This document shows, one piece after another, positions 20,385 through 46,071 of a stretch of 64,000 nucleotides of DNA. The translations under genes and the position numbers were made by a program. Within the stretch, counting starts at the first letter, position 1. Every line of letters starts with the position of its first letter. Where the stretch lies: IMG/VR virus record IMGVR_UViG_3300014059_000004; one strand, 5' to 3'. The notes under the pieces are model-generated. The model worked only from the letters and a program-made list of their open reading frames with translations, was not told where the DNA came from and ran no database searches. The stretch is from a virus.

Positions 20385-21306
20385 TATTGATCAATACGTT
20401 AGCAGTATTATACCACCCAGGATAATTTTTAATGTAACTTACGGACGAATCGATCATTTTTTGTCTATCATTGACGTCCATTTTTTCTATATTGCGTATG
20501 ATATCAACTGCGTGTTCGATCGATTCAAAAAACATCGCAGTTGGCACTTGTTGTTTCGAAAAAAAAGAATTTGAGTCTTCGTCTGATTCTCTAATGCAGA
20601 AACATCCTCGAGAACATGCATCGATTTCTTTCGCCCACAAGCCATGTTTCATGTTACACTTTTCATTATCAACAGTGAATTGCATGTTTGCAGAATGAAC
20701 GAATATTCGAATTTGAGACAATCGTTCAAGAAAATTTTGATAATTGTATTGATTTGGTTCAATGTGAACGTTGACACCGTATGATGAAAGTTTATCAAAA
20801 AAGTCTTTGCGGTGTGGATGAATCGATCCAATAAATCCAACTGAAATTTCACGTTGATCAAAACTGGGCTCATTAGAACAATAGTCAGAACGTGTCCAAA
20901 TTTTTACAAACTTAGCTGGGTAGCCCCTTGAACGCATGAATTCTGCCCACCATCTTACAGTGACAGCATAAAACTCAACGTTCAATATTGAAGAAATTCT
21001 AGAGTATGCTCCCTTATGAGGGCTATCATCTTTAAATGATTCCCAAGGATCTTGATCATAGATTCGTATTGGAAGCTTACCAATTTTATTTCCGATTACG
21101 TGTGCGTACTTATCAATCGTTCTTAGTTTCAAGCAGCTTACAATTACGTCAAATGACTCAATTGTTGAGTATGACAATGACTCAAGGTTTTTTAGTGAAA
21201 CAGTGATCAGATCACATGAATGTTGAAGAGCTTCAAACAACATATGTTGATAGCAATTAGCTGTGACATATGTTAGATCATCGATGATATGCAATACTTT
21301 TTTCAT
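20338..21306 (-). CDS. Hypothetical protein in the glycan cluster (322 aa)
   Basis: ORF in an AT-rich segment. No clear motif. Confidence 0.4.
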   Translation of the reverse strand: MKKVLHIIDDLTYVTANCYQHMLFEALQHSCDLITVSLKNLESLSYSTIESFDVIVSCLKLRTIDKYAHVIGNKIGKLPIRIYDQDPWESFKDDSPHKGAYSRISSILNVEFYAVTVRWWAEFMRSRGYPAKFVKIWTRSDYCSNEPSFDQREISVGFIGSIHPHRKDFFDKLSSYGVNVHIEPNQYNYQNFLERLSQIRIFVHSANMQFTVDNEKCNMKHGLWAKEIDACSRGCFCIRESDEDSNSFFSKQQVPTAMFFESIEHAVDIIRNIEKMDVNDRQKMIDSSVSYIKNYPGWYNTANVLINNEELCNWLSLVCEQC

Positions 21307-22007
21307 GAAAGCTTCTCATATGCATCTACAGCAGCAGCATATGCAACCAAAAAGGTGTTGTCATTGTAGTTAAATGACTTTGAGTCATTGCGAAATGATT
21401 CAGCTGCTTTGAAGCCTTCAATTGCAAGCCCGCGAAGACGATCCTTTTTCACTTGCCATGTCTTTATCACTGATTGAATTACATTCGTTTGATTTTTCAA
21501 AGCTCTGTGAAGACCGTAATGAAATGCTTGAACGTCATTTGCATGATAACAATGAAAACCAGCAGGTATCAATGTACTTGGCAATGCATTTCCACGAATG
21601 ACAATATCATGATTTCCATCAGCACGATCACAATAAAGCTTATCATCCAATCTAGCAAAAGTGACTTTTTTAGAGAAGCAATTCAATCCATAAATTAGTT
21701 CATTAGTGAAATAGTCATGTAGATAGCATTGCACACCAGTCAAACGAGGTTCATCATTGAACAATTTGCATATGTCATGCAAAACATTATTGTGCGCAAG
21801 AACAGTATCAGCATCAATTTTTACGAACAGATCATGATCTTTTTTTGCTGATTCCCAAGAATCCCACAAGCAGTTATGGGCCTCGCGCTCCGGCATGTTG
21901 CATATTGTATGATGTGTCACAGTAACATTTTCTTGATCGTTGATTGCTTTTGTGTGTTCATCATAATCATTTTCTTTGCAATACAAAGTTCCAACAAATA
22001 CTTTCAA
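21303..22007 (-). CDS. Putative GT-A-fold glycosyltransferase (234 aa)
   Basis: FVKIDADTVL resembles a DxD motif. Weak. Confidence 0.3.
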   Translation of the reverse strand: MKVFVGTLYCKENDYDEHTKAINDQENVTVTHHTICNMPEREAHNCLWDSWESAKKDHDLFVKIDADTVLAHNNVLHDICKLFNDEPRLTGVQCYLHDYFTNELIYGLNCFSKKVTFARLDDKLYCDRADGNHDIVIRGNALPSTLIPAGFHCYHANDVQAFHYGLHRALKNQTNVIQSVIKTWQVKKDRLRGLAIEGFKAAESFRNDSKSFNYNDNTFLVAYAAAVDAYEKLS

Positions 22008-22009
22008 AG

Positions 22010-23068
22010 TTATCTCCTTCTGAAGCCTTGTATTGGCAGTGACATCATCTCTTTATCGTACATGAAATTCCACTGTTTTTTTGAACCAACTTTTGCGTAC
22101 GTTGCATCTAGTGGAACAGCGCAATTTTCAATATCATAATACGTATGTTTTCGTACCCAATTTGGGTTAGGCTTTTCAAAATCTACGTAATCAAACGTTT
22201 CAAATTGGCACCATAGGCGCTTTATTTCTTCACAACGCTTAAGATATGCATGGCCTCGAGCGTCATGTATACGATCTGTGTCTATTGCATAGTACAGTTC
22301 GTTTATCGAACCAGGATTTGAAACTTCGTAATTGCTGTAGGAAATAATTGGTGGTCCAAGATTGAACACACCTGGACCAGCCTCATTTACAATGAACGAT
22401 TTGTTGCGGTGCCTGTATATCGATGCTATAGAAGTAAATCCTGTGTAAGAACACCAAAATGAATCAGATTTAATCATGACGTATAGTTTCAGCCATGCTG
22501 GAACGTGAGACATGTTAAGCGTCCCAGGGACATGAAATGACGTTGAAACAGTCAATTTATTTTCATCGATAAAACTTGAATTTTTCAAGTATTGTGCTAG
22601 AGGCTTATCATGTCGACCGTCAACGATTGGATCGATGTCATTTAGATGCACGACGTCGTATCTTTCCGGAAGCTTCAAGTCGTTATATTCTTGCTCTAGT
22701 CTATCAGATGGAACGAACGTTGGATAGAAAATTTCAGTAACCATCTTGTACACAATACCGTGGGCATCGAAATACAACAACTTTTCGCCATCCAGATCTG
22801 GATAGAGTGTTCTCTTGAAAGAGTGTCTATGATGTGTAGCTAGAACATAGTCGTATTGTTGTTGAGCTAGCTTAAGCGGTTTTCGAACAATACGATTTGC
22901 CCAGGGAAACTTAATCCATTCTCTTGTTTGTGATTGAACGTGCAAATCATCAAATTCAATTTGTATTTCTTCATTATTTTTCTTCAACAATTCAGCAATC
23001 CACAGAGTGACAATCCAATCACCCCAATGTTTAACAACAGAAGGTGCGTATACGCTGATCATGATCAC
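22010..23068 (-). CDS. Hypothetical protein (352 aa), possibly glycosyltransferase-like
   Basis: ORF; N-terminus WGDWIVTLWIAELL is vaguely GT9-like. Weak. Confidence 0.35.
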   Translation of the reverse strand: MIMISVYAPSVVKHWGDWIVTLWIAELLKKNNEEIQIEFDDLHVQSQTREWIKFPWANRIVRKPLKLAQQQYDYVLATHHRHSFKRTLYPDLDGEKLLYFDAHGIVYKMVTEIFYPTFVPSDRLEQEYNDLKLPERYDVVHLNDIDPIVDGRHDKPLAQYLKNSSFIDENKLTVSTSFHVPGTLNMSHVPAWLKLYVMIKSDSFWCSYTGFTSIASIYRHRNKSFIVNEAGPGVFNLGPPIISYSNYEVSNPGSINELYYAIDTDRIHDARGHAYLKRCEEIKRLWCQFETFDYVDFEKPNPNWVRKHTYYDIENCAVPLDATYAKVGSKKQWNFMYDKEMMSLPIQGFRRR

Positions 23069-23493
23069 CTAAATTCATTGACATAATCAGAACAAATTCC
23101 AGAACATTGTTGGGTTATAACATCGTTCGTTTTCATGACTATGATCATTGGTCCAGTCATAGTTGATTTTTCTGGGAATGTCCAAATATAACGTCTGCTT
23201 GTCAACGTGTAATCATCATTTTGATGCCAAAAACAGTGCGCGCCCAATTTCAGAAGATCACAAAGCGCGAGTAGATTTTTTGCATGACACCATGCTTTAC
23301 GTTCTTTAAGCAAAGAAACGCTATGTAGTTTGTATTGCGGCATATCATGCCCCAACCACCAATCATCATTGATTTTCCAAACGTCTATTTCAACATCGAA
23401 TCCTTTAGCTAGTGCTGCATACACGTAATCAGGCTTATTTTCTTCCGATACATTTTCACCATTGGTATTTCCACGATGAGCAATTAGAATCAA
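23065..23493 (-). CDS. Glycerophosphodiester phosphodiesterase (GDPD)-family protein, short form
   Basis: LIAHRGN...FDVEIDVW...WLGHD matches the GDPD motifs HRG/E-x-D/HD. Only 142 aa. Confidence 0.5.
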   Translation of the reverse strand: MILIAHRGNTNGENVSEENKPDYVYAALAKGFDVEIDVWKINDDWWLGHDMPQYKLHSVSLLKERKAWCHAKNLLALCDLLKLGAHCFWHQNDDYTLTSRRYIWTFPEKSTMTGPMIIVMKTNDVITQQCSGICSDYVNEFR

Positions 23494-24875
23494 TTACGTG
23501 TCCTTTTCATGATGAAATTTTGTAGATCTTCGGGCGTACCAAGTCCCTCCATCTTTTTTACCTGATACGCAATAATTTTCTTTCCATCTGCAATTGCTTC
23601 GTTAAAAACTGGACTTACGTAGTACTCATTGTTGACGCGTTTATTTTTTGATATCATCTGATTTGCGTACTTTACAAAATCAGAACCTGAGCGCCAATAG
23701 TATACGCCAACAGTTGCATCATCACTGATCGGTTGCTTTTCAGCAACTTCAGAGACATACCCGTCTGATTCAATTTTGACAAAACTCCATTTTGTTTCAT
23801 GAGCCTTGAATGTCAAGATGCCAGCGTCTGCATTCATGTTGTTGACTTTTTGAATAAATGAAACATAGTTCCATTCAATGTACTGATCTGAATTAACGAT
23901 CAGCAAAGGTTGATCGTTATCGATGTATTTTTCAGCTAGCAGTACTGTTCTTGCTGCACCGTCTGTAATTTGATCGATCATGATCATCTTATGATCAAGA
24001 TTAAGAGATCCTAGTACGTGTTCAACGTCTTCATTGCTAGATTCTTGATCTTTTTGTTTTCTAGCAATGAAGATGTAATTTGCTTTGATACCAATCGAAT
24101 CTGTGACGACTTGTATCATTGGTCGACCAAGAACATCGATCATGGGCTTTTGCTTTTTATAGCCGGCATCTTTAAATCTAGATCCCATCCCAGCCATAGG
24201 AATAACAATGTTCATGTTCAAAATGTTGATCAGCGACTTGTGTTGCGATGATTCATATTTCTTGATTGCTTTAAGCAAGCATTCATGACTTGAAATCAAA
24301 TCGCTAGCAGAACTAACATGGAAAACGTTAGCGCTAGATGCCAACGCTGATGCGATGCCAACTTCACTATCTTCAACAATCAACGTTTCATGACACGATG
24401 TTGACATCAATGCCATTGCACTAAGATAACATTGCGGATCTGGTTTTGGTTTCTTTACATGCTCGTTTGACAGACAAACATCAACAAACTCAAGAAGAGA
24501 TGTTTGAGTCAATATCCCAGAAACAGTTTCTGAGATTGCATTGCTAACAACGCCAATCTTAATTCCTTCGTTTTTGATGTTCGAAAATAGCGTTGTTAGT
24601 TCTGGCACCGGTTTGACGTTTTTCGAAATCCAGTCAGAAGTTTTACTTTGCTTTGATGAAAATATCAGATCACATAGACTTGAATCGAGACCATCATTTA
24701 CAAGTATCTCAAGTTTTTTTTTCGTAGGCAAGCCATTAAAACGTTGATGGTGATCATCGAGCGTAATCTGGAATTTTGGTGCATATTCTAGCAATGCGGC
24801 GTTCAATGTTTCGAAATGCATCTCGCGTGAATCAAACAAAACTCCGTCGAGGTCAAATAGAACTAGTTTAATCAT
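23490..24875 (-). CDS. Bifunctional HAD-family phosphatase / sugar-phosphate nucleotidyltransferase
   Basis: N-terminal LVLFDLDGVLFDS (HAD DxDG). C-terminal NIVIPMAGMGSRF (NTP-transferase G-x-G-S-R motif). Confidence 0.6.
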   Translation of the reverse strand: MIKLVLFDLDGVLFDSREMHFETLNAALLEYAPKFQITLDDHHQRFNGLPTKKKLEILVNDGLDSSLCDLIFSSKQSKTSDWISKNVKPVPELTTLFSNIKNEGIKIGVVSNAISETVSGILTQTSLLEFVDVCLSNEHVKKPKPDPQCYLSAMALMSTSCHETLIVEDSEVGIASALASSANVFHVSSASDLISSHECLLKAIKKYESSQHKSLINILNMNIVIPMAGMGSRFKDAGYKKQKPMIDVLGRPMIQVVTDSIGIKANYIFIARKQKDQESSNEDVEHVLGSLNLDHKMIMIDQITDGAARTVLLAEKYIDNDQPLLIVNSDQYIEWNYVSFIQKVNNMNADAGILTFKAHETKWSFVKIESDGYVSEVAEKQPISDDATVGVYYWRSGSDFVKYANQMISKNKRVNNEYYVSPVFNEAIADGKKIIAYQVKKMEGLGTPEDLQNFIMKRTRN

Positions 24876-25404
24876 GATTGAATTCGCACCTCAAGATTGA
24901 CATCATTACGTAATCAACATAATGACCATCTCTGTAAATTGCTTGACGTTGACGACCTTCTTCTACGAATCCTAGCTTTTTATACAATGAACTTGCATTC
25001 GAATTAGTTTCTAGAACGTAGAGATACACTCTGTTCATATTTTCATTATGAAAAAAATGATGCAGAAAATGCGTATACGTCTCAAATGCATACCCATTTT
25101 TTCTCTTGTTAGGAATTACGTCCATTCCTACCATAACACTTTTATTGTGATGATCGATTGAATCAACGCGAAATACACCAACAAAAGAACTACTATCTTC
25201 AAATCCGTCTTTTTCGTAAACAACATATCGTTGCGATGTTGAACTGTTACACAGTCTTTCAAACCACTTTTTTTGTTGTTCTTCGTTGATTATTGTCGGA
25301 TCAGACAGATGACTGATGACGCTCGGATCGTTGTGCAATATTCTAGCCAGTTCAACATCGCAACGTTCCATGATTCGAATATCAAGTCTTTTTGTTCTGA
25401 ACAT
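24868..25404 (-). CDS. GNAT-family N-acetyltransferase
   Basis: 178 aa, GNAT-like core (VYLYVLETNSNASSLYKKLGFVEEG). Adjacent to the aminotransferase gene. Confidence 0.55.
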   Translation of the reverse strand: MFRTKRLDIRIMERCDVELARILHNDPSVISHLSDPTIINEEQQKKWFERLCNSSTSQRYVVYEKDGFEDSSSFVGVFRVDSIDHHNKSVMVGMDVIPNKRKNGYAFETYTHFLHHFFHNENMNRVYLYVLETNSNASSLYKKLGFVEEGRQRQAIYRDGHYVDYVMMSILRCEFNHD

Positions 25405-26501
25405 GTTAACCGATATGATTCAATTGCATTGATAACTTTTCCAATGTCTTCTGTCGACAACCACCAACCACATGGAACGTTGATCATCTTTGAACTAAAT
25501 TCATCAAGACCAGGTAGTTCAGCATTTTTGAACTCACTAAAAACAGTGTACTTGTCATTTCGAAAATGAACGATATCAGATGCAATTCCGTTATTTGCAA
25601 GATGCTTCTTAAATGAATCACGATCATCAACTAGCACGGTATAGATCCAATACGCAGACTCTGCGTAACTTACTTGACGCATAGGCACTACTCGTGGATT
25701 GTTAATTGACGCATCATAAATTTTACCGCATCGACGATGTCCATCAATGATCTTGTCTATGTAAGGCAGTTGTGCAAGACCGATCGCAGCATTCACATTA
25801 TTCATGTGAAACTTGTAACCAGAATGTGTAATGTCTTGTGACCACTTTTCACCGATGAATTTTCTATCTAGACCAAACCATCGTAGTTTTTTAATCAGCG
25901 CATCAGATGATTGCAATTTTGAAGTAATTGCTCCGCCGTCAACAGTCGTAAGATGTTTGATGGCTTGAAATGAAAAACAAACATAATCACACTCTGCACC
26001 AATTGGCTTTCCTTTGTACGAAGCACCCATAGCATGTGCAGCATCTGCGATAACAACTACGTCAGTTCTGTTCTTTTTTTTCAAGACATCATAGATGCCA
26101 TCTACGTCAAATGGTGTTCCGGCCCAATGAACGCCAACAATTGCACAAGTTTCAGGCGTTAGTACTTTACTGACGTAATTCGGATCAATATTTCCCGTCG
26201 TTGGATCTATGTCAGACCAAATAATCTTTGCGCCCATCGTATGGATGGGTTCATTTGTTGCCATGCACGTCATGGGTGATGAAATAACGTGCTTACCATT
26301 AGAAACACCAGCCATTCTATACGCTAGTGTCAATGCTGATGTGCCACTGTTAACCAAACTAGTATGTGCTGTGAATCGCTTGCTTAGTTGATGTTCGAAT
26401 TCATCAGCGTACTTACCTTCAGTTATAACTCCAGAATCAAAAACTTCTTGAACAATTGCACCAATATTTGGTGGAACATGCACTTTGAATAGTGGTATCA
26501 T
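25290..26501 (-). CDS. DegT/DnrJ/EryC1/StrS-family PLP-dependent sugar aminotransferase
   Basis: DAAHAMGASYKGKPIG and SFQAIKHLTTVDGGAI (PLP lysine). The 3' end overlaps the GNAT gene by ~115 nt. Confidence 0.75.
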   Translation of the reverse strand: MIPLFKVHVPPNIGAIVQEVFDSGVITEGKYADEFEHQLSKRFTAHTSLVNSGTSALTLAYRMAGVSNGKHVISSPMTCMATNEPIHTMGAKIIWSDIDPTTGNIDPNYVSKVLTPETCAIVGVHWAGTPFDVDGIYDVLKKKNRTDVVVIADAAHAMGASYKGKPIGAECDYVCFSFQAIKHLTTVDGGAITSKLQSSDALIKKLRWFGLDRKFIGEKWSQDITHSGYKFHMNNVNAAIGLAQLPYIDKIIDGHRRCGKIYDASINNPRVVPMRQVSYAESAYWIYTVLVDDRDSFKKHLANNGIASDIVHFRNDKYTVFSEFKNAELPGLDEFSSKMINVPCGWWLSTEDIGKVINAIESYRLTCSEQKDLIFESWNVAMLNWLEYCTTIRASSVICLIRQ

Positions 26502-27466
26502 TTGCAGCTCAATTTTTCTTCATAGTATGCAATTAGTTTGGGTAGTTCATCTGCTAGATGTCGTTGTTGTTTCCACCCTAGTTTAAGCAATTTATCACAG
26601 TTCAAAGCATATCGTTCATCACAACCACTACGATCAGTTGAGGTATCAACACTATCTTCGTATGATTTGTTCAACAAATTAGCGATCATTGTAACAATTT
26701 GTTTTACACTAAATTCTTCATCTGAAGAAACGTGATAAGAAGAGTTAAGATCTCCTTTGTCTATAATGGTGATCAATGCATCAACATTGTCTTCTACGTG
26801 AAGCCAATTCCGAATGTAACGTCCGTCACCATGAACAATAACTTTTTTGTTAGTTAGCATGCTTGTTATTGAAGCAGGAATCAATTTTTCAGCGTGCTGC
26901 CTAGCGCCGTAATTGTTAGTAGTTCTTGTGATCAGATACGGTAGTTCGTACGTCCTGCCCCAAGCATAAACTAGCTGCTCAGCACATGACTTAGTTGCAG
27001 AATAAGGATTGCTTGGATGATGTCTATCGTCTTCTTTGAAAGAACCTTCGATAATATCGCCAAACACTTCGTCAGTACTAATTTGAACAAATGTTGGTGG
27101 ACGATACCCCCAACTACTCATCATGTTCTGAATTTTTCGTTGCTTAATCAACTCCAAAAGATTGTGAACGCCAAGAACATTTGAATTGAGAAAGTTTGAG
27201 GCATTGTTGATCGAATTATCAACGTGTGATTCAGCTGCAAAATTAATGATCATGTCACAAAATGGAAGATCTGTTATTTTTGCAATGTCTTGCTTGAAAT
27301 AATGATAATCACCAGTGAATGTAAGATAAGTGTTTGCAGCATATGTTTCACTATCAATATTGATAACTTTATGACCCATTGTCAAAATTTGTTCAACAAA
27401 ATGAGAACCTATAAAACCTAGGCCTCCTGTGACTATAATCGTCTTGCGACCTGAGAGACGATTCAT
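26498..27466 (-). CDS. rmlB: dTDP-glucose 4,6-dehydratase (RmlB-like SDR)
   Basis: TGGLGFIGSHFV; YSATKSCAEQL (YxxxK); NYGARQHAEKLIPASI...HGDGRYIRNWLHVED matches the RmlB signature region. Confidence 0.75.
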   Translation of the reverse strand: MNRLSGRKTIIVTGGLGFIGSHFVEQILTMGHKVINIDSETYAANTYLTFTGDYHYFKQDIAKITDLPFCDMIINFAAESHVDNSINNASNFLNSNVLGVHNLLELIKQRKIQNMMSSWGYRPPTFVQISTDEVFGDIIEGSFKEDDRHHPSNPYSATKSCAEQLVYAWGRTYELPYLITRTTNNYGARQHAEKLIPASITSMLTNKKVIVHGDGRYIRNWLHVEDNVDALITIIDKGDLNSSYHVSSDEEFSVKQIVTMIANLLNKSYEDSVDTSTDRSGCDERYALNCDKLLKLGWKQQRHLADELPKLIAYYEEKLSCK

Positions 27467-27900
27467 TACTTTGACTCACTTTCAAAGTATGAAGTCCAGT
27501 CATTGAATTTGTACGTATCTTGATCATCTGGGTGCCATGATGGAGTTGGCAAGTTCAGAACGATCGCTGCGTTTGCTGAGTTATTTGCTAGCAGAATTGG
27601 AATTCCTGGCGGAATTTTCATGATCCAGTGTTGATTGTTACCTTCGTCAGACAGCTGCTGAACTTTAAGTTCTTTGTCAAAGTATTCAAGATGCACGTGA
27701 CCAGACACAGCAGTTATGTAAGCTGTTCTTTTTCTATGCAAAATGACACCTTTTTTCGTGTTTGCACGCATAGTTGTGATATATGCCATTTTAGGCACAT
27801 GTCCATCATGCCATTCATCCCAATCTCTATACACTGGGAATAGTTCACCATCAGGTGTTTTTATGACCTCGAGCTGCTTGATTGATACTTTTGTGCTCAT
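27466..27900 (-). CDS. Cupin-type dTDP-keto-sugar isomerase/epimerase (FdtA/WxcM- or RmlC-like)
   Basis: 144-aa cupin-sized protein with a G-x-H-x-H-like core (KGVILHRKRTAYITAVSGHVHLEY). Translationally coupled to rmlB. Confidence 0.4.
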   Translation of the reverse strand: MSTKVSIKQLEVIKTPDGELFPVYRDWDEWHDGHVPKMAYITTMRANTKKGVILHRKRTAYITAVSGHVHLEYFDKELKVQQLSDEGNNQHWIMKIPPGIPILLANNSANAAIVLNLPTPSWHPDDQDTYKFNDWTSYFESESK

Positions 27901-28703
27901 TTTATTCGCTCTACAGAATATGAACCATCTAGATCAATCTTATCATGTTGTGTTGATCTGTAACCATGAACGTGTGTATTCGGCCGAGAGCCTGCAACGA
28001 TGTTCATATTTGCAAATGACAACTTAGAATGAAAAAGGCCGCCATTATAAAGACCCGTAAATGCAAACTGCTTGTCGATTATGCTTTGAAAATCAGCTTC
28101 TGAAATTTGTGACATCTTTGCCATTTCGTCTAGCGCTGATTTAAATGAAGAAAGTCTATTTAGACCGCAAACCACAGGCGTAAAATTTGTTTTGAATATG
28201 TTGCCAGTAGCATGCTCAAAGAAAACCGGTTCAGAATTTCTGAACCGGTTTGTTTGCCTTTGCCAAGCGTAAATTCTTGAATTGGGTTTTGGTTTGTCTT
28301 TGTTGTAAAGATCTGCTTCTTCAACAAAGAATTCTTGTGTTCGAATCATACCAACATCATGATTGGTATCAAGAAAATCTTCACACTCTTGAAGACGTTC
28401 TATTTTATCATGCATGCAATCAGACTCGATCGAATACACATATTTGTATGATGTTGCCATTGGCATATGAGCAACGTATCTCAGGGCGGTCCAATAACCA
28501 ATGTTTCGATCACTACGAAGCACACAGTTAAATTTTGACAATAGATCAGTAATATCAACTGTCGAACAATTGTCAAAAACTACCAAATTTTTTGATATCT
28601 GATCAAAATTTGATTGTGAAACTAGGTTTTCAACAACATTTTCAAAGATGTCTTTTCTACCTTGTTCAAGGCAACATGCAATCATCACGTACAAAGTTTT
28701 CAT
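27897..28703 (-). CDS. Putative GT-A-fold glycosyltransferase
   Basis: N-terminal LVVFDNCSTVD (DxD-like). Confidence 0.35.
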   Translation of the reverse strand: MKTLYVMIACCLEQGRKDIFENVVENLVSQSNFDQISKNLVVFDNCSTVDITDLLSKFNCVLRSDRNIGYWTALRYVAHMPMATSYKYVYSIESDCMHDKIERLQECEDFLDTNHDVGMIRTQEFFVEEADLYNKDKPKPNSRIYAWQRQTNRFRNSEPVFFEHATGNIFKTNFTPVVCGLNRLSSFKSALDEMAKMSQISEADFQSIIDKQFAFTGLYNGGLFHSKLSFANMNIVAGSRPNTHVHGYRSTQHDKIDLDGSYSVERIK

Positions 28704-33214: not shown

Positions 33215-33454
33215 TCAATGCTTAGCGATTGTTACGTTCGATGATTCATCATCGACCCAAATCAACTTCGTCATGCCACCGTGGCCGTGGATGTTCTCAA
33301 GCGTCTGGATGTCTGGATAGTAGCACATAGATGATTTCTCAGTCAACCAAACCAATGCGCACCACCCAGTATCGAACTGGCATCCTTCAGCTACGTTACC
33401 GAGACCAGAAACACCAGATGCATCTTGCAATCTCTTCAAGTAGAACCGTTTCAT
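33215..33454 (-). CDS. Small hypothetical protein (79 aa)
   Basis: Fills the intergenic gap. Confidence 0.3.
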   Translation of the reverse strand: MKRFYLKRLQDASGVSGLGNVAEGCQFDTGWCALVWLTEKSSMCYYPDIQTLENIHGHGGMTKLIWVDDESSNVTIAKH

Positions 33455-34140
33455 TTGATGAAACCTCTTTTCCTCAAGAATTGTTTGTCTGTAACACGCT
33501 TAAACTTCAATCTATGTTCTGCGAACCATGCATCCTGTTTACGATCGATCAACCATTTCTTATGGATCTGTGCATCACGAAGTGTCCTATGTTCTGCAAT
33601 GATTTCTATCGGACGATCCAACCCGTGCCAGTAAACGCCATCAAATTGAATGTAGGTGTCGATGCTCTTAATGTAGAAGTCAATTGGCCAACAATCATTC
33701 ATCAAAACTTGCCGTTCAACATTATCAATGCCATATACAAAACAGAGATGTTCAAAGTATGTATCCTCAATTTTGCTTTTGCCGTATGTACCTCTAATTT
33801 TCATTGTTTCATGGCCACGCTTGTTTCGCAAGTCCCAATCAGTTTTATTCCGAATTTCATTGACTTGCCAATGGTGTTTAACGCCATAACGAATCATGGT
33901 TGTTCGTTCTCGTTTAGCTTGTACTTCTACTGATTTACCAGGGTTGTCAACCCCATAACGTTCGATGCATGTCTGACGTGTTTGTTCACGTATCAATCCA
34001 CCTTTTTGACGAGCAATTGTTGTACACTTACGACTACAGAACACACGTCCGTCCCGTCGATCGATTTCTTTTGCTTCACAAGGACGTTTGAGAAGCTTCT
34101 TGTGACATGTCAAGCATTCATATGAAATCTTTGTTCCCAT
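33451..34140 (-). mobile_element. Homing-endonuclease-like gene: N-terminal Zn finger + Vsr/DUF559-type PD-(D/E)XK nuclease
   Basis: CLTCHKK..CSRKC is similar to the N-terminus of the 18768..19508 gene. C-terminal PIDFYIKSIDTYIQFDGVYWHG. Confidence 0.45.
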
Positions 34141-34922
34141 GGTTCCCCTGTTGAAATATACCCACGTGAACGAAGGAAGTCAGCTTCCGCTTTCTGAAAG
34201 CGCGCGTCGTCTGTTTGATAGACTTTGCCTCCTTGCTCGTCAATAGAATAATGATAAAAAACACGGGGAATGAAAGCTCGACGACGTGTGCGGTATAGAC
34301 ATGGCAAATATACAGCCTGATCTCCTGCACGCTTCACAAGTTCTCCATTCATATTTGTGAAATTCTCGTAAGGAACTCCATTTATCAATGACTTTCGAAA
34401 AGTCTTGAGGTGCGATGACACCCATGGATGAACGTAAGGATCAGCATCAGGTGGGAGCGGCCCCGAGATGTTCTTGTCGCTGTATGCCCAACGATGAGCA
34501 GTCCACAAGGCTTCTGCGCCTGTTTGTTCGTACACGGCGTTCAAGTACACCAATGCATCATTGTCAGTCAACCAGTCATCAGCATCAATGCGACAGACGA
34601 TGTCATCATCATCACACATTGAAATGCCATGCAGGACATTAGCGACTTCCCACTTCTTTTCAGCATTCCAGACAACATGAATCTTATCATGAGGAATCAA
34701 ACGTGACCATGCGTCGATTATGTCTGCTTCTTTGCGTCGTTCATCATTGTCACTAACGTCATCGATCAAGATGATCTTCCAGTTGTCGTACGACTGGCTT
34801 ACGATGCTAGCGAGCATCTGCCCCACGTACTGTGATGCATTGTACATGGGTGCAACAAAACAAAATCGATTCTTACCACTCGTTGTCATCAACGTCTTTC
34901 TTCGTAAGAAGAACTTGACCAT
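34110..34922 (-). CDS. Family-2 glycosyltransferase (GT-A)
   Basis: FCFVAPMYNASQYVGQMLASIVSQSYDNWKIILIDDVSDN. Confidence 0.6.
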   Translation of the reverse strand: MVKFFLRRKTLMTTSGKNRFCFVAPMYNASQYVGQMLASIVSQSYDNWKIILIDDVSDNDERRKEADIIDAWSRLIPHDKIHVVWNAEKKWEVANVLHGISMCDDDDIVCRIDADDWLTDNDALVYLNAVYEQTGAEALWTAHRWAYSDKNISGPLPPDADPYVHPWVSSHLKTFRKSLINGVPYENFTNMNGELVKRAGDQAVYLPCLYRTRRRAFIPRVFYHYSIDEQGGKVYQTDDARFQKAEADFLRSRGYISTGEPWEQRFHMNA

Positions 34923-35878
34923 GACTTATTAGTAATTACACGACGAATTGTCGAATATGACAATGTTGGATATAGTGTCATTAGTTCGTTCATTGTTGAA
35001 CCTTTTTCAAATCGAATTCTTATTTCATGAACAATAGCCCATGTCAATTTTGAACGTGGGTTACCTTCATTTGACATTCGTTTTTTACGAGCAGCAATAA
35101 CCTCTGGTTTATGCATTCCCTTAATTATATTTGATCGTTTATTCGAATCTTGCCAGGCCGACGTCTGTCTTTCGGATTGATATCTGATATTTTCATCACT
35201 TTGCGTACGTTCTAGAACTTTTTTCCTGTATTCTTCATTTTCTGCCCAATATTGTTTGCATGCATTACTTTTTTTCATGCGAACAGTTTCTTTAAGTTGT
35301 GCTTCTGAATTATTCTTACGTGCTTCTGGTGTTCTTGACCATTCTTTTTGAATTTCAGAATGTCGTATACGAACTGTATTATCTGACCAAATTTCTTTAA
35401 GTTTTTCACTTTGTTTTTGACGACGTTGTTGATCAGACCACAAAACTTGTTGTGTAACGCTCATCTTAAGACGTGTTTCATCAGAAGTAGATGTACCTCC
35501 AATTCCTCCTCCGCTAATGTTCAACATTTGAACGCCTTGAGATCGTAGTTCTTCTATCAGATAAATTTCTCTTTGAAAAGCTATAGATTCGTTCTGATGT
35601 TGTTGATCGATCTTGAACTCGAACGAATCTATTCCGTATTTTCTCATTGAGTTATACAAGCGTGGAAGACTTTGAGAACCAGAATTTGCTGCGTATACGT
35701 GTTGCTTCCAGCGCTTATTAAGATTATTAGTTTTTCCAACGTAACAGTCACCGTTTACGGTACATGTAATGGTATATGTGTAACTAAATTGCTCACCATT
35801 CTGATTGATCAATACCTTTTTTTGTGAGCAAAACTTGTCCATAGTTGATTTCTTCATCTGCATAATGCCTATCATCAA
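34889..35878 (-). mobile_element. GIY-YIG homing endonuclease with NUMOD repeats
   Basis: YTYTITCTVNGDCYVGKTNNLNKRWKQH ... EIYLIEELRSQGVQMLNISGGG. Repeated basic NUMOD-like segments. Confidence 0.65.
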
Positions 35879-36599
35879 TAAATAGGCGTCTATCTAGAAT
35901 ACACAACTCTTTCTCTTCAGAGTTGACTTCGCTCTCATTGACTGAATCAATCAGCTCACGGCATTGAATTCCAGGGTCAGTCTTGCTAGGAAGATGGTAA
36001 TCATCAAACAGCAAGCACTTCAACCACTTGTCCTTTGTCATCTCCCAATCGAGTTTTGTCGCAGCGTACGAATGATCGCCATCGATGTATACCAAATCGA
36101 ACTTTTGATCTCCAAGCTGCGGCACCATCTTTTCAGACGGTCCACGAGCGAATTCGATCATGTCAAACCATTCTGGTGGGAAGACTTGCTGCAGCATCTT
36201 CAAGTAATTTTCATCTAGCTTTGGATCAACAGTGATGATCTTGCCAGACACGCCCATATCATAGAAAGCTCTAGCGGCGCAGAACGTTGAGTATCCACGA
36301 CCAAAACCAATCTCAAGCATCGACGTCATCTTGTAGCGCTTGATGAGGTTGTATATGAGAATACCACGTTCATAATTTGCACGGTAGAACATGCCGTACT
36401 TCTTGTAGTTTGGATCATCAGGCGTCCTTGTGCGTTCTGCTGTGAACCTACCAATGTAATCAAAATCACCCATGACAACTTCGTCAGGTGATGTTCCAAG
36501 CTGCTCTAGTTTCTGCTTGATGCTGATAGTCTTCATTTCTTCATCACCTTTGGTTCTGGTCTGTTCACTGTCATGTGCGGCGTAGAAAATCCTGTCCAC
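35793..36599 (-). CDS. Class I SAM-dependent methyltransferase (TylF/MycF-like O-methyltransferase family)
   Basis: MLEIGFGRGYSTFCAARAF ... YIDGDHSYAA. Confidence 0.55.
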   Translation of the reverse strand: MDRIFYAAHDSEQTRTKGDEEMKTISIKQKLEQLGTSPDEVVMGDFDYIGRFTAERTRTPDDPNYKKYGMFYRANYERGILIYNLIKRYKMTSMLEIGFGRGYSTFCAARAFYDMGVSGKIITVDPKLDENYLKMLQQVFPPEWFDMIEFARGPSEKMVPQLGDQKFDLVYIDGDHSYAATKLDWEMTKDKWLKCLLFDDYHLPSKTDPGIQCRELIDSVNESEVNSEEKELCILDRRLFIDDRHYADEEINYGQVLLTKKGIDQSEW

Positions 36600-38554
36600 T
36601 TCTTATGCCAGATGTGGCCGCCAGTCTTCTCTGCCAACTCTTTAGCTCTATCTTTGATCATGTCATCTGTGACTTCTGACCATGGAACGTCGAACATCAT
36701 GTTGTTCTCTGCTGTGTCATCAGCATTCCGACCATGCAACGAATTCCAATGACGAGTCCAGTAGTTTTTGTACAGCTTGATCTTTCGTTCTAGATCATAC
36801 CAACTGTAATGATGAACGCCTGGAAGTTGATCAACTGCTGCATTGAACCATTGCTCATACTTGATCAAGGCTTCAGCATTTCCCATCAAAGCTTGCAAAC
36901 GAACGTTCTCAACTTCGTGTGTATAGAACGACATATGAGGCAAACGTTCACCAGTTTCAGCATGTATCATGTCGCAACCATCCGTGCCTTCATGAGCGTA
37001 CATGTTACCATCTGCATCAGTTGCGCGAAGTTCTACTGGAATTCCGTGCGTAATGTATGGCTTGTTGCGGCTGAGACGCCATTTCCACGGTTGAATGTCG
37101 ACTCGGATCTTGTTAGGTCCGCCCCAATACTCGATGACTGGAAGTGACAATATGTCGACTTGCTTCGGAAGCTTCTGTGCCAGGCTGATGATCTTCTTTG
37201 CATCATCTTCATGGACTATCTCATCTGAGTCCATCTGCCAGCAGAAATCACCAGTGCACATAGCTCGAGCTTCTGCTTTCTGCATGCCGTCATAGACAGC
37301 GTGACGGGGGTGTGACCAATCACGGGGAATCACTTTGATGTGAATCTTGCTGTCAAATGGTCCCAAACCTCCGCTTATAACGCGAGTAGTACCATGTGTT
37401 ATAAGCGATTGAAGACAATTGTTGAAGTAATCGCCTGTCGTTGGAACGTCCTTTAGATGTTCTGAATGGGCAAAAGAAAGCTTCAACAATGACTCTAGCG
37501 TACCATCTGTGCTACCACCGTCAACAACACAAACTTCATCGCAGAATTCCAACATGCTCTCGATGCATTGCACGAATGGATAATCCTGCTGCATGCAGTT
37601 GTACGTCGTTGTGTAACCTGAGATGCGTGGTTTGTAGTTTGCGATCTTCTTGACAGTAGTCCAGAATAGTTCTGGTGATACATGAAGGTAATCTTCGATG
37701 TCTTCTATCACGTCAGTAGCAAACCACTCTTCATCCTTGTGCTGGACGTTCTCGTTAAGTTCAAGCTTGCAGCCAAGAAGCTTCGCTTCAATGACCATTC
37801 TTGGACAAGTGTCAGCACCGGCTGGCAGATACACAAAGCCTTCAGCAGTTGACAACTTCAGAAGAAGCTCATTGTACGGAAGGTTCCATACGACTTCGTA
37901 CGCCTTAGCATTGTCTTTGCACCACTTTTCAGCAGCTTCGAAACCTTTTACCCAAGAGTTCGAACCAAGAACGATCCAACCTTTTCGACTGGATGGGTCA
38001 GTGGTTTCTCTTAGCTTTTTGATGTACCCTAGAGAAACTTTGTCGAAGACGCTGGATAGGGTGTAGTTGTCTTTCTCTGCCAAGAACGGGAAGATGGTGT
38101 GATACTTCTCTTTCTGAGCATCTGACATCCAAAAGAGACACTGCGAACCGTAGTAGAAAGCTGAAACTAGCTTCCCGTTCATCTGCTCAGCACAATCACA
38201 TGCTGTGCCTGTTGCAGCTGCATGCTTCTCTGGGGATCTGAACTTGCAGAACTTATAGTCGTACTCTAGATTGCAGTAACGTAGGTTGCCTATGATGCTG
38301 GGGATCAACTGTGGATTTAGTTCAGCATAGTTTCCAAAGATCCAGAACTTTTCAGATCCTTCTCTCAAGAGGTCCATAGTCACCTCTTTTGACTTGATCT
38401 TCTGAACCTTCAGTGGACTGGATGATATCAGTGCTTCAGAAGTTAGCTCAGCTCCACCGACGTAGTCTTCTACGAAGAGATCAGCTACAAAGATGACGTC
38501 AGCAGTCTTATCGATGCTGACTCTCTTCAACGTAAAGAAATGTTCTCCAAACAA
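36533..38554 (-). CDS. Large multidomain glycosyltransferase with a central GT2 (GT-A) domain
   Basis: TTTYNCMQQDYPFVQCIESMLEFCDEVCVVDGGSTDGT ... WQMDSDE. TTG start at 38554 preceded by SD AAGGGAG at a 9-nt spacing. Confidence 0.55.
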   Translation of the reverse strand: MFGEHFFTLKRVSIDKTADVIFVADLFVEDYVGGAELTSEALISSSPLKVQKIKSKEVTMDLLREGSEKFWIFGNYAELNPQLIPSIIGNLRYCNLEYDYKFCKFRSPEKHAAATGTACDCAEQMNGKLVSAFYYGSQCLFWMSDAQKEKYHTIFPFLAEKDNYTLSSVFDKVSLGYIKKLRETTDPSSRKGWIVLGSNSWVKGFEAAEKWCKDNAKAYEVVWNLPYNELLLKLSTAEGFVYLPAGADTCPRMVIEAKLLGCKLELNENVQHKDEEWFATDVIEDIEDYLHVSPELFWTTVKKIANYKPRISGYTTTYNCMQQDYPFVQCIESMLEFCDEVCVVDGGSTDGTLESLLKLSFAHSEHLKDVPTTGDYFNNCLQSLITHGTTRVISGGLGPFDSKIHIKVIPRDWSHPRHAVYDGMQKAEARAMCTGDFCWQMDSDEIVHEDDAKKIISLAQKLPKQVDILSLPVIEYWGGPNKIRVDIQPWKWRLSRNKPYITHGIPVELRATDADGNMYAHEGTDGCDMIHAETGERLPHMSFYTHEVENVRLQALMGNAEALIKYEQWFNAAVDQLPGVHHYSWYDLERKIKLYKNYWTRHWNSLHGRNADDTAENNMMFDVPWSEVTDDMIKDRAKELAEKTGGHIWHKKWTGFSTPHMTVNRPEPKVMKK

Positions 38555-38634
38555 GGCGTCTTGCTCCCTTGACGCTAAGGGTATTCAATTTTCATCATCT
38601 GTATAAAACTTCTGTTCCTACGTCGTGCTCGCAG

Positions 38635-38785
38635 TTTCTCTAGAGAAATTTCCTCTGCCCGAGGTTACTTAAGAGGAGTGCTTCTTCTATCTAGAGAAAT
38701 ACAGTGGAAATATTTCCACTGCTCTATCTAGAGAAATACTAGAAATTACCTGCTGGCCCGACGAGCTCGCTAAATTTCTCTGGGA
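38635..38785. promoter_or_regulatory. Divergent regulatory region between the minus-strand glycan operon and the plus-strand block, built from palindromes and direct repeats
   Basis: 16-bp direct repeats tctatctagagaaata at 38686-38701 and 38723-38738 flank a perfect 20-bp palindrome. A third degenerate copy tttctctagagaaatt sits at 38635-38650 and is itself a 14-bp palindrome. An inverted partial copy atttctct lies at 38774-38781. Confidence 0.5.
38702..38721. repeat. Perfect 20-bp palindrome cagtggaaatatttccactg (candidate operator)
   Basis: Read directly; its reverse complement is identical. Confidence 0.9.
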
Positions 38786-38832
38786 TCTAATCAGGCGACA
38801 CCCGCGGGTCGCATCCTGCTCGAGTCAGACAC

Positions 38833-39423
38833 ATGGCAAAGAACACAGTAAAAACTTCGAAGTCGATGGAGCCCAAGATTCTAGTGTCTAGATCGACTGG
38901 TGTTCCATCAATCTCCAGTCCAAGAGCGTATGACAGGGAAATTCTTGATCATGTTCTGCAAGTTCACAAGAAGATTCTAGAATCACCAGCTCTTAACGGC
39001 GGATTCGAACGCGTTGAATCTCAGCTAGAAGATGTTAAAAGCACCCACGAAAAGAGCGCTAAGCTGCTGTCAGAAGTTCACGAGGCGATCTATCATCCAG
39101 AGAAGGGTGTGTATGCAAAGATCAACGAGATCAACGTTAAGTCGTTGACTGAGGCTCATGCTCAAGACAAGAACATCGATGAGCTCATAAAGTGGAAGAA
39201 AGATGCTGAAGTCTCGCTCAAAGAGAGCGCTGAAAAGAAAGCAATCGATGACAAGAAGATCGAAGATCAGCAGAGAATCATCGAGGGTCTAGAGCGTTGG
39301 AAGGGTTCTGTCAGCGGGTTTCTGAAGTGGACCGCGGGCGTTTTTGGTGGTGCTGCGGTAGCGTTGATCTCAAAGCTTACGTACGATTACATCACGAACC
39401 ACTGGAAATTAGCTGTAGTATAG
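38833..39423 (+). CDS. Coiled-coil protein with C-terminal transmembrane segment (196 aa)
   Basis: ATG start. C-terminal WTAGVFGGAAVALISKLTY. Ends with TAGTAG immediately before the chaperonin-like gene. Confidence 0.5.
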   Translation: MAKNTVKTSKSMEPKILVSRSTGVPSISSPRAYDREILDHVLQVHKKILESPALNGGFERVESQLEDVKSTHEKSAKLLSEVHEAIYHPEKGVYAKINEINVKSLTEAHAQDKNIDELIKWKKDAEVSLKESAEKKAIDDKKIEDQQRIIEGLERWKGSVSGFLKWTAGVFGGAAVALISKLTYDYITNHWKLAVV

Positions 39424-39427
39424 TAGT

Positions 39428-40636
39428 TTGGTGAGAGAACTGCGGGAAGATGTAAAGCGAGAGATTGCTGATGCTCGTGCTGTGCTACGTGCTGTAATGT
39501 GTTTGCCAGATGCTTCGCTAGTTCGCAGCAAAGACAGCATCAGCATCTTGACAGAAGAGCAGGCAACTTTCAAGCTCATAGAAGCTTCAGGATTCAAGAA
39601 GAACTACGTTCTTCAGCTAGCACTTACTCATGCAGCCGCAGCCGAGGTGCTAGCCCCTGGGAGCTTCAACGAGACACTCTCGTTGATCACGATTAAACTA
39701 GAGAAATTCAGTAAAGGGAATCACAAGTTTAATTTTGAAGATTATTCTCGTGTCAATTCGAGACTAGCGACTGCTGACGATCTGCACCGTGTAGTGCATA
39801 GCATCGATGAGACGTACTTGCGAGACGTGCTGAACACAGCGCTGGAGCTCGCTGGTTACGGTGGTAAAATCTCAGTTGAGAAGTCTTCGTCAGCGTCTTC
39901 ATCTGTGGAAGTGACTCGAGGTTACAACTTCCAGATCGCTCCATGTTGGGATCTTACGATGATCGCAACAACACCTAAAGTCGCAATCATAGATGGGTAC
40001 GTTGAGAAAGTTTCTGAACTACATCACTTGCTTGAAGCTGCATCTGCCTCAAAAGAACCACTGGTCATCTTCGGTCGTGGTTATCATGATGACGTCATCA
40101 ACACGTTGAGAGTTAATTTCACTCGTGGAACGCTGATCGCTGTGCCAATATTGGTCAATTTTGATCTTGATGGTATCAACACGTTGAATGACATAGCAGT
40201 CGTCTGTGGTTCTGACGTTGTGTCTAGCAACAAGGGCGATCTGATATCTTCGATTGATTATGTTGGATTGAAGAGAGTGGATCGCGTGACAATCCGTCGT
40301 GATGTTGTAAGCATTGATAACGCTTCGACGAGACGTGAAGTCAACATCCATCGATCAAATTTGCTGAAGAAACGTGCTGAGAGCCCTGCATTTGACGTAA
40401 GCAAGCTCATAGACAAGCGCATCCGTTCCCTGAATGGGCGTCAGGTCATCGTTCGCCTGCCTGATGACAAGCATTACTTGTACCGGTCTAGGAAGATTGA
40501 TGTTGCTTTGAGAACTATGAAGATCATAGTTGATCATGGCATAATCGATGGTGAACCAGCGCTAGGTAAGGTAGCATCAGAGCATCACTCTGATCAGTTT
40601 GTCATGACGCTAGCTAACGTCGGTAACTTTATCTGA
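39428..40636 (+). CDS. Truncated, divergent GroEL/Cpn60-like chaperonin (apical and intermediate domains recognisable; no GDGTTT motif; ends near the GroEL ~430 equivalent)
   Basis: Alignment to GroEL: TRGYNF / [41 protein letters not shown] / [51 protein letters not shown] / [59 protein letters not shown] / [46 protein letters not shown]/GTG start. Confidence 0.6.
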   Translation: [402 protein letters not shown]

Positions 40637-45050: not shown

Positions 45051-45332
45051 ATGGAAGATATGTTGAAGAAGTTTGATGAACTACGTGTTGCTCTTAGTGA
45101 AGTTGAGCCAGACCTTGTGAAGAGCACCCGTGGCGTTGCTGCCGCCGGTCCTCGTGTTCGCAAGGGGCTGAAGGTTGTTAAAGCTCTTGCGCACGAACTT
45201 CGGGTTCTTAGCATCACCCTTGACAAGGCTCGTCGTGAAGAGAAGCTGAAGCATGCTGCGGCAAATCCTAAGCCAAAGAGGCCATCTCCCTTCAAGAAGA
45301 AGGCTTCCTTAGAAAACATCGCAGTCAAGTAA
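45051..45332 (+). CDS. Lysine-rich basic protein, possibly histone-H1-like DNA-binding
   Basis: 93 aa, SD AAGGAG 8 nt upstream. Tail KPKRPSPFKKKAS. Confidence 0.5.
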   Translation: MEDMLKKFDELRVALSEVEPDLVKSTRGVAAAGPRVRKGLKVVKALAHELRVLSITLDKARREEKLKHAAANPKPKRPSPFKKKASLENIAVK

Positions 45333-45401: not shown

Positions 45402-45929
45402 ATGCCATCACATAGATCAATACTTGCAGACATCAACAAGTTCAACCTAGATCCATCAAAAGCGTACAGAGTAACTCACGCTGACGGACGTCTAGCTAAG
45501 TCTGCAACTGAAGGTTCAGTTTCAACATCAACAGAACCAGCTAAGCCAGTTTTTGAACCTGTCATAACAACTGAAACCTCGCCAGTTGAAGAAGCATCAC
45601 CTGTCGCAACGGCGGTTGAAGAGCAAGTTGTTGAAGTTGCTCAGCAAGCTGAAGTAGAAATGCCAGCAGAAGAATTTAAGCTGGAAGAACTACAAGCAGA
45701 TGTTCAGCCTGCTGATGTTCAAGCATCTGAGCCAGTTGAAATTAAAGATCCTGAGCCCAAGAAGGAAACTGCAACAGTTGAAACGTCAAAGAAGAAATTT
45801 GGAAAGAAGTCGCTAAACGGCTTATGTTACGAATCTTCTCGTAGATGCTTTTTTCGATCTGACAGATTCTCATCCTTGTTAGGTTGTAGATCTTTCCGAT
45901 CTCTTGCAATGTATGCGGTCCATTACTAG
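45402..45929 (+). CDS. Acidic E/P/A/V-rich low-complexity protein
   Basis: ATG with SD GGAGA upstream. The track ORF starting at 45339 would overlap the terminator. The 3' ~100 nt conflicts with the antisense gene 45742..46071. Confidence 0.45.
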   Translation: MPSHRSILADINKFNLDPSKAYRVTHADGRLAKSATEGSVSTSTEPAKPVFEPVITTETSPVEEASPVATAVEEQVVEVAQQAEVEMPAEEFKLEELQADVQPADVQASEPVEIKDPEPKKETATVETSKKKFGKKSLNGLCYESSRRCFFRSDRFSSLLGCRSFRSLAMYAVHY

Positions 45930-46071
45930 CAGCTATCATAACGCAATTATTCCCATCAGTGTAAGGAATCCAATTTGGACATGTCCTTCGTTGGCAGTTG
46001 ACATTGTGTTTTTCATGAACGCTGTAGCATGTCGTCTGCACTACGTTAAGGCGTCTTTTTCTTTCTTGCAT
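45742..46071 (-). CDS. Small Cys-rich protein carrying a sigma-70 region-4.2-like helix-turn-helix
   Basis: PHTLQEIGKIYNLTRMRICQIEKSIYEKIRN versus E. coli sigma70 [31 protein letters not shown] (~19/30 identical). N-terminal C-x10-C-x4-C-x11-C. Confidence 0.5.
   Translation of the reverse strand: MQERKRRLNVVQTTCYSVHEKHNVNCQRRTCPNWIPYTDGNNCVMIAASNGPHTLQEIGKIYNLTRMRICQIEKSIYEKIRNISRLATSFQISSLTFQLLQFPSWAQDL

Follow-up and report, generated by a model that had tools for sequence, protein, structure and literature searches.

The 278-bp gap between two divergent blocks of genes in a stretch of viral DNA of 64,000 nucleotides (IMG/VR record IMGVR_UViG_3300014059_000004; the whole stretch is referred to here as the window) contains a cluster of direct and inverted repeats, and from its sequence we give about an even chance to the prediction that the gap is a cis-regulatory cluster of protein-binding sites arranged around putative divergent promoters. 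The gap separates a minus-strand gene for a glycosyltransferase-like protein of 673 residues (GT673; 36533-38554), which begins with a TTG codon and opens the leftward block, from a plus-strand open reading frame (ORF) of 196 residues (p196; 38833-39423), which opens the rightward block and is followed by a GroEL-like ORF. The position of the array at the divergence of these two blocks, noted in a preliminary description of this DNA, is thereby confirmed. The phage belongs to an uncultured clade of jumbo phages with genomes of roughly 300 kb, and the array in the window is most likely one lineage's version of a repeat hotspot that occurs upstream of GT673, the conserved anchor of the locus, across this clade.

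Structure of the repeat array

The centre of the array is formed by two exact 17-nt direct repeats with a palindrome between them. Repeat 1 (TCTATCTAGAGAAATAC, equivalent to TCTATCTAGAGAAATA plus a C; 38686-38702, plus strand) combines a TCTAGA core with a AGAGAAAT half-site, and repeat 2 (38723-38739, plus strand) has the same 17 nt at a distance of 37 nt downstream. The intervening 20-bp perfect palindrome CAGTGGAAATATTTCCACTG (38702-38721) is composed of the arms CAGTGGAAAT and ATTTCCACTG and presents two inverted GTGGAAAT half-sites, while a degenerate half-site, CTAGAAATTA, follows repeat 2 at 38739-38748 on the plus strand. On the GT673 side, the site designated O1 (38635-38657) comprises a 14-bp perfect palindrome, TTTCTCTAGAGAAA (38635-38648), and a third half-site, ATTTCCTCTG, that abuts it. 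O1 is located immediately downstream of the box CTTAAGTA (38666-38673, minus strand), a promoter-like element that points to GT673. On the p196 side, the inverted copy AAATTTCTCT (38772-38781, minus strand) is the exact complement of AGAGAAATTT at 38642-38651, the two together making a 10-nt inverted repeat.

All of the elements listed in the preliminary description are present at the coordinates given there, and several proved to be parts of longer ones. The direct repeat is exact over 17 nt and the 20-bp palindrome is perfect; the third copy at 38635-38648, described as self-palindromic, is the 14-bp perfect palindrome; the inverted partial copy ATTTCTCT at 38774-38781 belongs to the 10-nt inverted repeat; and the GC-rich hairpin reported ahead of the ATG at 38833 was located at 38795-38812.

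No palindrome in the window is longer than the one of 20 bp. Among simulated 64-kb sequences, 9% held a palindrome of that length and 4.5% a local exact direct repeat of 15 nt or more; the presence of the two within 54 bp, with a third copy besides, is therefore no chance event. The motif likewise departs from the random frequency that the preliminary description had named as a reason to doubt it, with exact TCTAGAGAAAT found three times in a search of the window and each time inside the gap. No further matches to the 17-mer were found in the window when up to 3 mismatches were allowed. The pentamer GAAAT is present 8 times in 135 nt of the gap, whereas stretches of 160 nt elsewhere in the window contain 0.49 on average and never more than 3, and the half-site RKRGAAAT 6 times in 150 nt, compared with a maximum of 2 elsewhere. 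In IMG/VR the 16-mer gave 31 single matches in unrelated contigs, which is about the level of chance by our own estimate, and a 32-mer gave no match. Use of ATTTCTCTRG or TCTAGAGAAAT as a general promoter motif was considered and rejected, since exact copies are confined to this gap and one position inside a gene and the 16-mer is absent from a 104-kb contig of a relative at 97% identity.

The three copies that bear TCTAGAGAAAT can be aligned with each other as diverged copies of a composite unit, TCTAGAGAAAT(ACAGTGGAAATA)TTTCCACTGC. O1 is unit 0 of this family in the alignment and lacks the parenthesized ACAGTGGAAATA part, whereas in unit 2 the palindrome has decayed, CTAGAAATTA being its counterpart as judged by the alignment and the GAAAT count. 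The array from 38635 to 38781 can also be read as about nine 8-nt half-sites of the form RKRGAAAT (AGAGAAAT, GTGGAAAT and close variants) in direct and inverted orientations, although Tandem Repeats Finder did not call the repeats in the window as an array. The three units are homologous, and their half-sites occur in both orientations, a pattern that DNA sites read by dimers would be expected to show.

Variation within the lineage

The lineage was sampled by eight assemblies, namely the window, which lies within a 71-kb Logan contig from run SRR1145916, and seven others from different runs, which show 97–98% protein identity and have gaps of 277–278 nt. All eight cross the region. The repeat structure is not an assembly artefact, as the seven assemblies from other runs carry the same gap.

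Only 4–5 changes distinguish the gaps, none of which fall in the two 17-mers or the 14-bp palindrome, and the 20-bp palindrome is untouched except in strain L170; in seven of the eight assemblies the repeats are thus unaltered. In L170 the palindrome carries two non-compensatory changes, T38705A and T38713C, of which the first yields CAGAGGAAAT, a form that also stands at 38648-38657. The variant C38652T affects the third half-site of O1, where it converts ATTTCCTCTG to ATTTTCTCTG (TTTCTCT). Through each of C38652T and T38705A, a half-site takes on a form found elsewhere in the array. When the two strain types are compared, divergence amounts to 1.4–1.8% in the gap and about 1.7% in p196, compared with about 7.7% in the adjoining 5' part of GT673. 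The pattern is mosaic, and the low divergence suggests that the gap may be under selection.

A clade-wide hotspot of repeats upstream of GT673

We collected 160 loci with GT673 homologs at 47–64% identity, 125 of which have distinct upstream sequences. About half of the loci retain the divergent order, in which p196 is accompanied by the GroEL-like gene, a 155-residue ORF and ClpP. The 500 nt upstream of GT673 are a hotspot of lineage-specific repeat arrays across the clade. Among the 125 relatives, tandem repeats occur at 30 per 10 kb in these 500 nt compared with about 4 per 10 kb elsewhere, a difference of about 7-fold, and the hexamers TCTAGA/AGATCT are found at 4.6 per kb in the interval from -250 to 0 compared with about 1 per kb (about 5-fold), with no second peak within 6–8 kb. 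The repeat units themselves differ from lineage to lineage and include GATCGGATCTAG (6.8 copies), a 26-mer (4.8 copies), AGATCTAG (5.5 copies), TAGATTAG (5 copies) and GAACAGTA (8 copies or more). Most of the arrays have units of 6–12 nt, and many have a period of 8 nt with a TAGA core, as in TAGATTAG, AGATCTAG and TAGAACAG. The gap of lineage L013, which is 61% identical, also contains a AGAGAAAT half-site and an inverted pair GGAAAT...ATTTCC. At 278 nt the gap in the window is longer than those of the relatives, which span 20–235 nt in 29 syntenic cases and have a median of 120 nt in 47. These gaps were too diverged for automatic multiple alignment. No change in copy number was seen between close pairs of relatives. 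Scans of metagenomes and genomes returned nothing closer than 64%, and one record, P0003, has a GT673 homolog at 88% identity.

The ends of relatives' contigs cluster 130–540 nt upstream of GT673, in 8 of 22 truncated IMG/VR contigs and 11 of about 30 metagenome contigs; these counts were made by hand from tables, and the random expectation was estimated at about 7% and about 14%, respectively. Several of the ends are inside long tandem arrays, for example (ACTAGATCAG)n, (GAACAGTA)n, (CTGTATTT)n and a 17-mer array, which occupy the first 30–90 nt of loci L047, L051, L060 and L145. Since short-read assemblers break in long tandem arrays, the clustered ends are best read as assembly breaks rather than genome ends. 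A repeat hotspot that is fixed in position with units specific to each lineage explains why assemblies of many of these phages break here.

Promoter-like boxes

The CTTAAGTA box in the window has counterparts across the clade that are specific to one strand. The motif TTAA[AG]TA directed toward GT673 is present at 2.8 per kb in the last 100 nt before the gene compared with 0.23 per kb overall, and in 47 syntenic gaps it is found in the GT673 direction in 27 and in the opposite direction in 3. In most of the loci that carry it, the motif lies 23–106 nt upstream of GT673 without a fixed -35 partner, and the exact sequence CTTAAGTA occurs in five relatives in the same orientation as in the window. 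In the window there are only six TTAAGTA sites, few of them upstream of genes. A GC-richer subgroup of relatives also has a sigma-70-like element, TTGAAC-N17-TAnAAT, 6–21 nt before the start codon, of which the window keeps only a TTGAATA box (38582-38588, minus strand), the positional homolog of the TTGAAC(A) box that resembles a -35 element; no usable -10 element was found after it. In the relatives that were inspected, the arrays lie upstream of these promoter-like boxes. The window has a similar arrangement, with repeat 1, the 20-bp palindrome and repeat 2 located 13–73 nt upstream of CTTAAGTA and the 14-bp palindrome just downstream of it.

In the rightward direction, the inverted copy AAATTTCTCT overlaps the sequence CTAAATT, 56 nt ahead of the p196 ATG, in which TAAATT is a weak -10 candidate. 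Another weak candidate, TTGACG-18-CATCAT at 38569-38598, has a score no better than the background mean.

A predicted control region for two divergent blocks

The binding of proteins, the use of the CTTAAGTA box as promoter, the points at which transcription starts and whether regulation is positive or negative are all inferred, and the following mechanism is offered on that footing. The gap would serve as a shared control region of the two divergent blocks, with its half-sites bound by one or two sequence-specific and probably dimeric proteins encoded by the phage or by its host. Repeat 1, the palindrome and repeat 2 would occupy the position of activator or repressor sites upstream of CTTAAGTA, and if transcription were to start about 6 nt past the box, their centres would be at roughly -33, -52 and -70. 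The 14-bp palindrome past CTTAAGTA would be in a position to act as a roadblock, and the inverted copy at 38772-38781 would cover the region where the rightward block presumably begins to be transcribed. By being occupied or free, the sites could then set the timing or the level of expression of both blocks.

The preliminary description had proposed an operator array for a dimeric regulator. This proposal is partly supported. It agrees with the clustering of partly symmetric sites with a shared half-site (AGAGAAAT/GTGGAAAT) in a single gap, with the strand-specific box that they flank, with their stability among strains and with the arrays that mirror them at the same position in the clade; no regulator was identified to go with it. 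Several observations weigh against a cis-regulatory function. The sites could not be assigned to any DNA-binding protein, neither of the flanking genes is a regulator, and the only DNA-binding candidates found in the window (a free-standing sigma-70 region-4 ORF, an Hc1-like ORF and a weak match to a late sigma factor) are not tied to the motif. No sigma-70-type promoter above background was found on either strand of the gap, and for this reason the promoter positions are inferred from conservation only. Relatives at about 60% identity do not conserve the sequence of the motif, so that the comparison cannot prove a function for the sequence in the window, and a recombination block that takes in p196, instead of selection, could account for how little the gap has diverged.

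If the sites are operators, they would form the main switch point between two large blocks, one with sugar-modification and baseplate genes and the other with chaperonin-like and prohead-protease genes, in a widespread jumbo-phage clade without a cultured member. They would also provide a handle on the regulators of this clade, by way of a bait fragment of 150 bp.

Alternative explanations

A broader reading, which we consider unlikely, extends the regulatory idea to the whole clade. The repeat arrays upstream of GT673 would be a fast-evolving 'address' that is read by a co-evolving phage protein, and the repeat-palindrome-repeat of the window would be one allele of it. If true, the address might be an enhancer-like loading site for late transcription or a start point for replication or segregation.

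An origin of replication of the iteron type is also unlikely. On this view initiator monomers would bind the direct repeats as iterons, and the palindrome would be an autoregulatory site bound by the dimer, as in iteron plasmids. The combination of direct and inverted repeats with a common half-site is in keeping with this idea, as is the restriction of the motif to one locus within 64 kb or more, to which about 80 kb from a close relative can be added, and iteron-like arrays are found at the same place in some relatives (a 26-mer in 4.8 copies in L080, a 17-mer in 5.5 copies in L060 and a 12-mer in 6.8 copies in L105). Most of the relatives' array units, however, are below the size of typical iterons at 6–12 nt. 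An iteron origin would be expected to contain at least three direct repeats of about 17–22 bp in regular phase; in the window two exact repeats 37 nt apart and a third, degenerate one 51 nt away show no regular helical phasing. The cumulative GC skew has its minimum at about 38 kb, but since this coincides with the switch in gene orientation it gives no independent support for an origin; in the right arm, genes on the minus strand reverse the AT skew and bring the GC skew to about zero or below, and in each arm the skew pattern is broken by genes of the opposite orientation, showing that the skew follows the coding strand. Canonical DnaA boxes (TTWTNCACA) are not enriched at this position in the clade, with 0.03 per kb and an occurrence in one of the 125 loci. 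The idea that the palindrome contains DnaA boxes was accordingly dropped as unsupported across the clade, the window having only look-alikes with 7 of 9 matches inside the palindrome, by inspection. No Rep-like or initiator-like family was recognised among the neighbouring genes, and inspection revealed no clear AT-rich unwinding element. The suggestion of an origin-like element in the preliminary description gained no independent support.

Also unlikely is the explanation that the array is a by-product of local duplication and slippage in a recombination-prone and fast-evolving spacer and has little or no sequence-specific function. The three units can be related to each other through duplication and through deletion between GAAAT repeats, and the unusual length of the gap in the window, the wholly different repeat units of the lineages and the many contigs of relatives that break in long tandem arrays at this place are all as expected on such an account. 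It is difficult to reconcile with the strain comparison, in which the 17-mers remain identical and the palindromes perfect in seven of eight assemblies despite about 8% divergence in GT673, or with the unchanged copy number in close pairs of relatives. Furthermore, the hotspot occupies one conserved position beside strand-specific boxes in more than 100 lineages, and TCTAGA/AGATCT recur within it.

We regard as improbable a function at the level of RNA, in which the palindromes would fold into hairpins within long 5' leaders or would terminate a small RNA encoded in the gap. In a terminator scan the 20-bp palindrome followed by TATTTCTCT resembled an intrinsic terminator on the minus strand; the flanking genes diverge, however, so there is no upstream gene that would need one. 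The rightward candidate TTGACG-18-CATCAT would place the whole array in the p196 leader, but its score, as mentioned above, does not exceed the background mean. Small hairpins do lie right before both start codons, as they do in relatives. On the GT673 side, CCCTT-GACGCT-AAGGG (38566-38581, minus strand) is in the presumed 5' leader of the gene, with a 3' arm that overlaps a Shine-Dalgarno-like AAGGGAG and a loop that contains the strain polymorphism A38572G, and inspection of relatives showed a hairpin of other sequence at the equivalent place. On the p196 side, the GC-rich hairpin GCGAC-ACCCGCGG-GTCGC (38795-38812, plus strand), which includes the 10-bp palindrome ACCCGCGGGT at 38800-38809, lies 20 nt ahead of the p196 ATG. 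The palindromes of the array, by contrast, have no loop, which is the signature of DNA sites; the changes in L170 do not compensate each other; and the arrays of the relatives are tandem direct repeats that do not fold. Fold z-scores of -1.9 and -2.2 on the two strands gave no strand-specific signal, and no Rfam match came near the gathering score of any family.

A packaging (pac/cos) site, genome terminus or centromere-like partition site is very improbable: short-repeat arrays are a typical feature of pac and of parC/parS sites, and the contig ends upstream of GT673 cluster above random expectation, but several of these ends are inside long tandem arrays as expected of short-read assemblers, other contigs of the same phages read through (L038 and L039 compared with L040), all eight assemblies of the window lineage cross the region, and the scan of ORFs, in which the neighbours of the gap were covered, brought up no gene for a terminase or for partition.

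Flanking genes and other features

Two further elements of the gap and its equivalents are rich in GC. The block CGTCGTGCTCGCAG (38621-38634) has CGAGCACG in common with relative L011, by inspection, and in the relatives CGCGCG-rich blocks adjoin the start of the p196-equivalent gene, CGCGCG being enriched only from -250 to 0.

GT673 matches the Pfam family Glycos_transf_2 (E 7e-9) and has 2641 homologs in metagenomes, the N-termini of which align from residue 1–2 and so support the TTG start. Searches with DNA and protein found no match to the region or to GT673 in cultured phages, the nearest of which are jumbo phages of roughly 300 kb with about 30% helicase identity. Among 185,579 species genomes GT673 had a single match, in a 306-kb contig labelled as a Methylococcaceae metagenome-assembled genome that is probably a phage. 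The left arm contains, in addition to GT673, many sugar-modification genes and gp25/gp6-like baseplate genes.

The p196 product contains a coiled coil and, at its C-terminus, a transmembrane helix, and the only homologs found for it are nearly identical. These features do not belong to a DNA binder, and p196 was rejected as an autoregulated repressor. The right arm continues with the GroEL-like ORF, a ClpP-type protease that matches head-maturation-protease PHROGs, a DinG-like helicase and PhoH. The ORF that had been called a chaperonin (39428-40636, plus strand; 402 residues) matches the GroEL PHROG over residues 143–373 only (E 4e-15), from which its product is predicted to be a truncated or diverged GroEL-like protein and not a full chaperonin subunit. 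Searches of PDB sequences with the neighbouring 383-residue and 155-residue ORFs returned nothing useful.

The small ORFs of the window were inspected or scanned for ribbon-helix-helix or helix-turn-helix regulators, and none was convincing except the one with sigma region 4. This 109-residue ORF (45742-46071, minus strand) is made up essentially of sigma-70 region 4, the helix-turn-helix that binds the -35 element, after a Cys-rich N-terminus (Pfam Sigma70_r4, E 1.7e-8). In the PDB, region 4 of primary sigma factors gave the best matches. This sigma domain 4 stands on its own, and its orientation opposes that of its neighbours. In the right arm, a 93-residue ORF (45051-45332, plus strand) matches the chlamydial histone H1-like Hc1 family of Pfam (E 1.6e-9), which points to a putative phage-encoded DNA-binding protein of the nucleoid type. 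A 272-residue ORF in the left arm (11888-12706, minus strand) has a weak PHROG match to 'late sigma transcription factor' (gp55-like; E 2e-6) with no support from Pfam or the PDB.

Within the glycan operon, two segments at about 33481-34378 and 34921-35891 are missing from the relative L165, which is 96–99% identical, and from L084. They carry endonuclease genes, a 229-residue ORF with matches to homing-endonuclease PHROGs and a 329-residue GIY-YIG ORF (34889-35878), and look like mobile homing-endonuclease insertions. A third ORF of the GIY-YIG/NUMOD3 type is present at 57038-57895. The same operon includes a 79-residue gene (33215-33454, minus strand; 4383-4622 in L001) with a precomputed Pfam match to PF26761 (Acb5). 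The region 20000-28000 has a GC content of 0.38–0.39 compared with about 0.45 elsewhere in the window, and this part of the sugar-modification block may have been acquired separately. Finally, a 154-residue ORF at 16946-17410 (minus strand) matches the Pfam family DSPc, the catalytic domain of dual-specificity protein phosphatases, just over the family cut-off (E 2e-8).

Relation to known regulatory and replication regions

Late promoters of the T4 type have the sequence TATAAATA and are read by gp55. The short, strand-specific and A/T-rich TTAA(A/G)TA upstream of GT673 is reminiscent of these, as are the weak late-sigma PHROG match and the presence of morphogenesis genes in both arms. The sequence differs from TATAAATA, however, no exact copy of which occurs in the window; the late-sigma match stands without Pfam or PDB support; and TTAA[AG]TA is sparse in the rest of the window. 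The idea of a T4-like late promoter is therefore no more than a lead.

Plasmid and phage origins such as those of pPS10, F or P1 RepA combine iterons with inverted repeats. They share with the gap a set of direct repeats and a palindrome with a common half-site, a single-copy locus and repeats that are lineage-specific. The gap differs from them in having no adjacent initiator gene, DnaA boxes, AT-rich unwinding element or skew switch independent of gene orientation, and its repeats are only two or three and irregular.

Ribbon-helix-helix proteins bind arrays of short subsites, such as the TAGA boxes of Arc, the tandem 8-bp metboxes of MetJ, the 7-bp heptads of omega and the parC sites of ParR. 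The resemblance lies in the short subsites in direct and inverted orientations, in the 8-bp period and TAGA core of the relatives' arrays and in the TAGATAGA found on the minus strand of the repeat in the window. No such gene was found among the window ORFs that were scanned or inspected, and the sites in the window are 37 and 51 nt apart, whereas those of the known arrays abut each other.

Divergent regions with several operators are known from the OR region of lambda and P22, with its promoters PR and PRM, and from the A2b/A2c/A3 region of phi29, with several p4 sites and the histone-like protein p6. Unlike these, the gap in the window has no adjacent regulator gene and no recognisable sigma-70 promoters, its two best sites are direct and not inverted repeats of each other, and the phage is of the jumbo type, roughly 300 kb. 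As in these regions, the sites are about 14–20 bp long, partly symmetric and clustered between divergent blocks, they lie upstream of and over the presumed promoters, and a gene for an Hc1-like protein is nearby.

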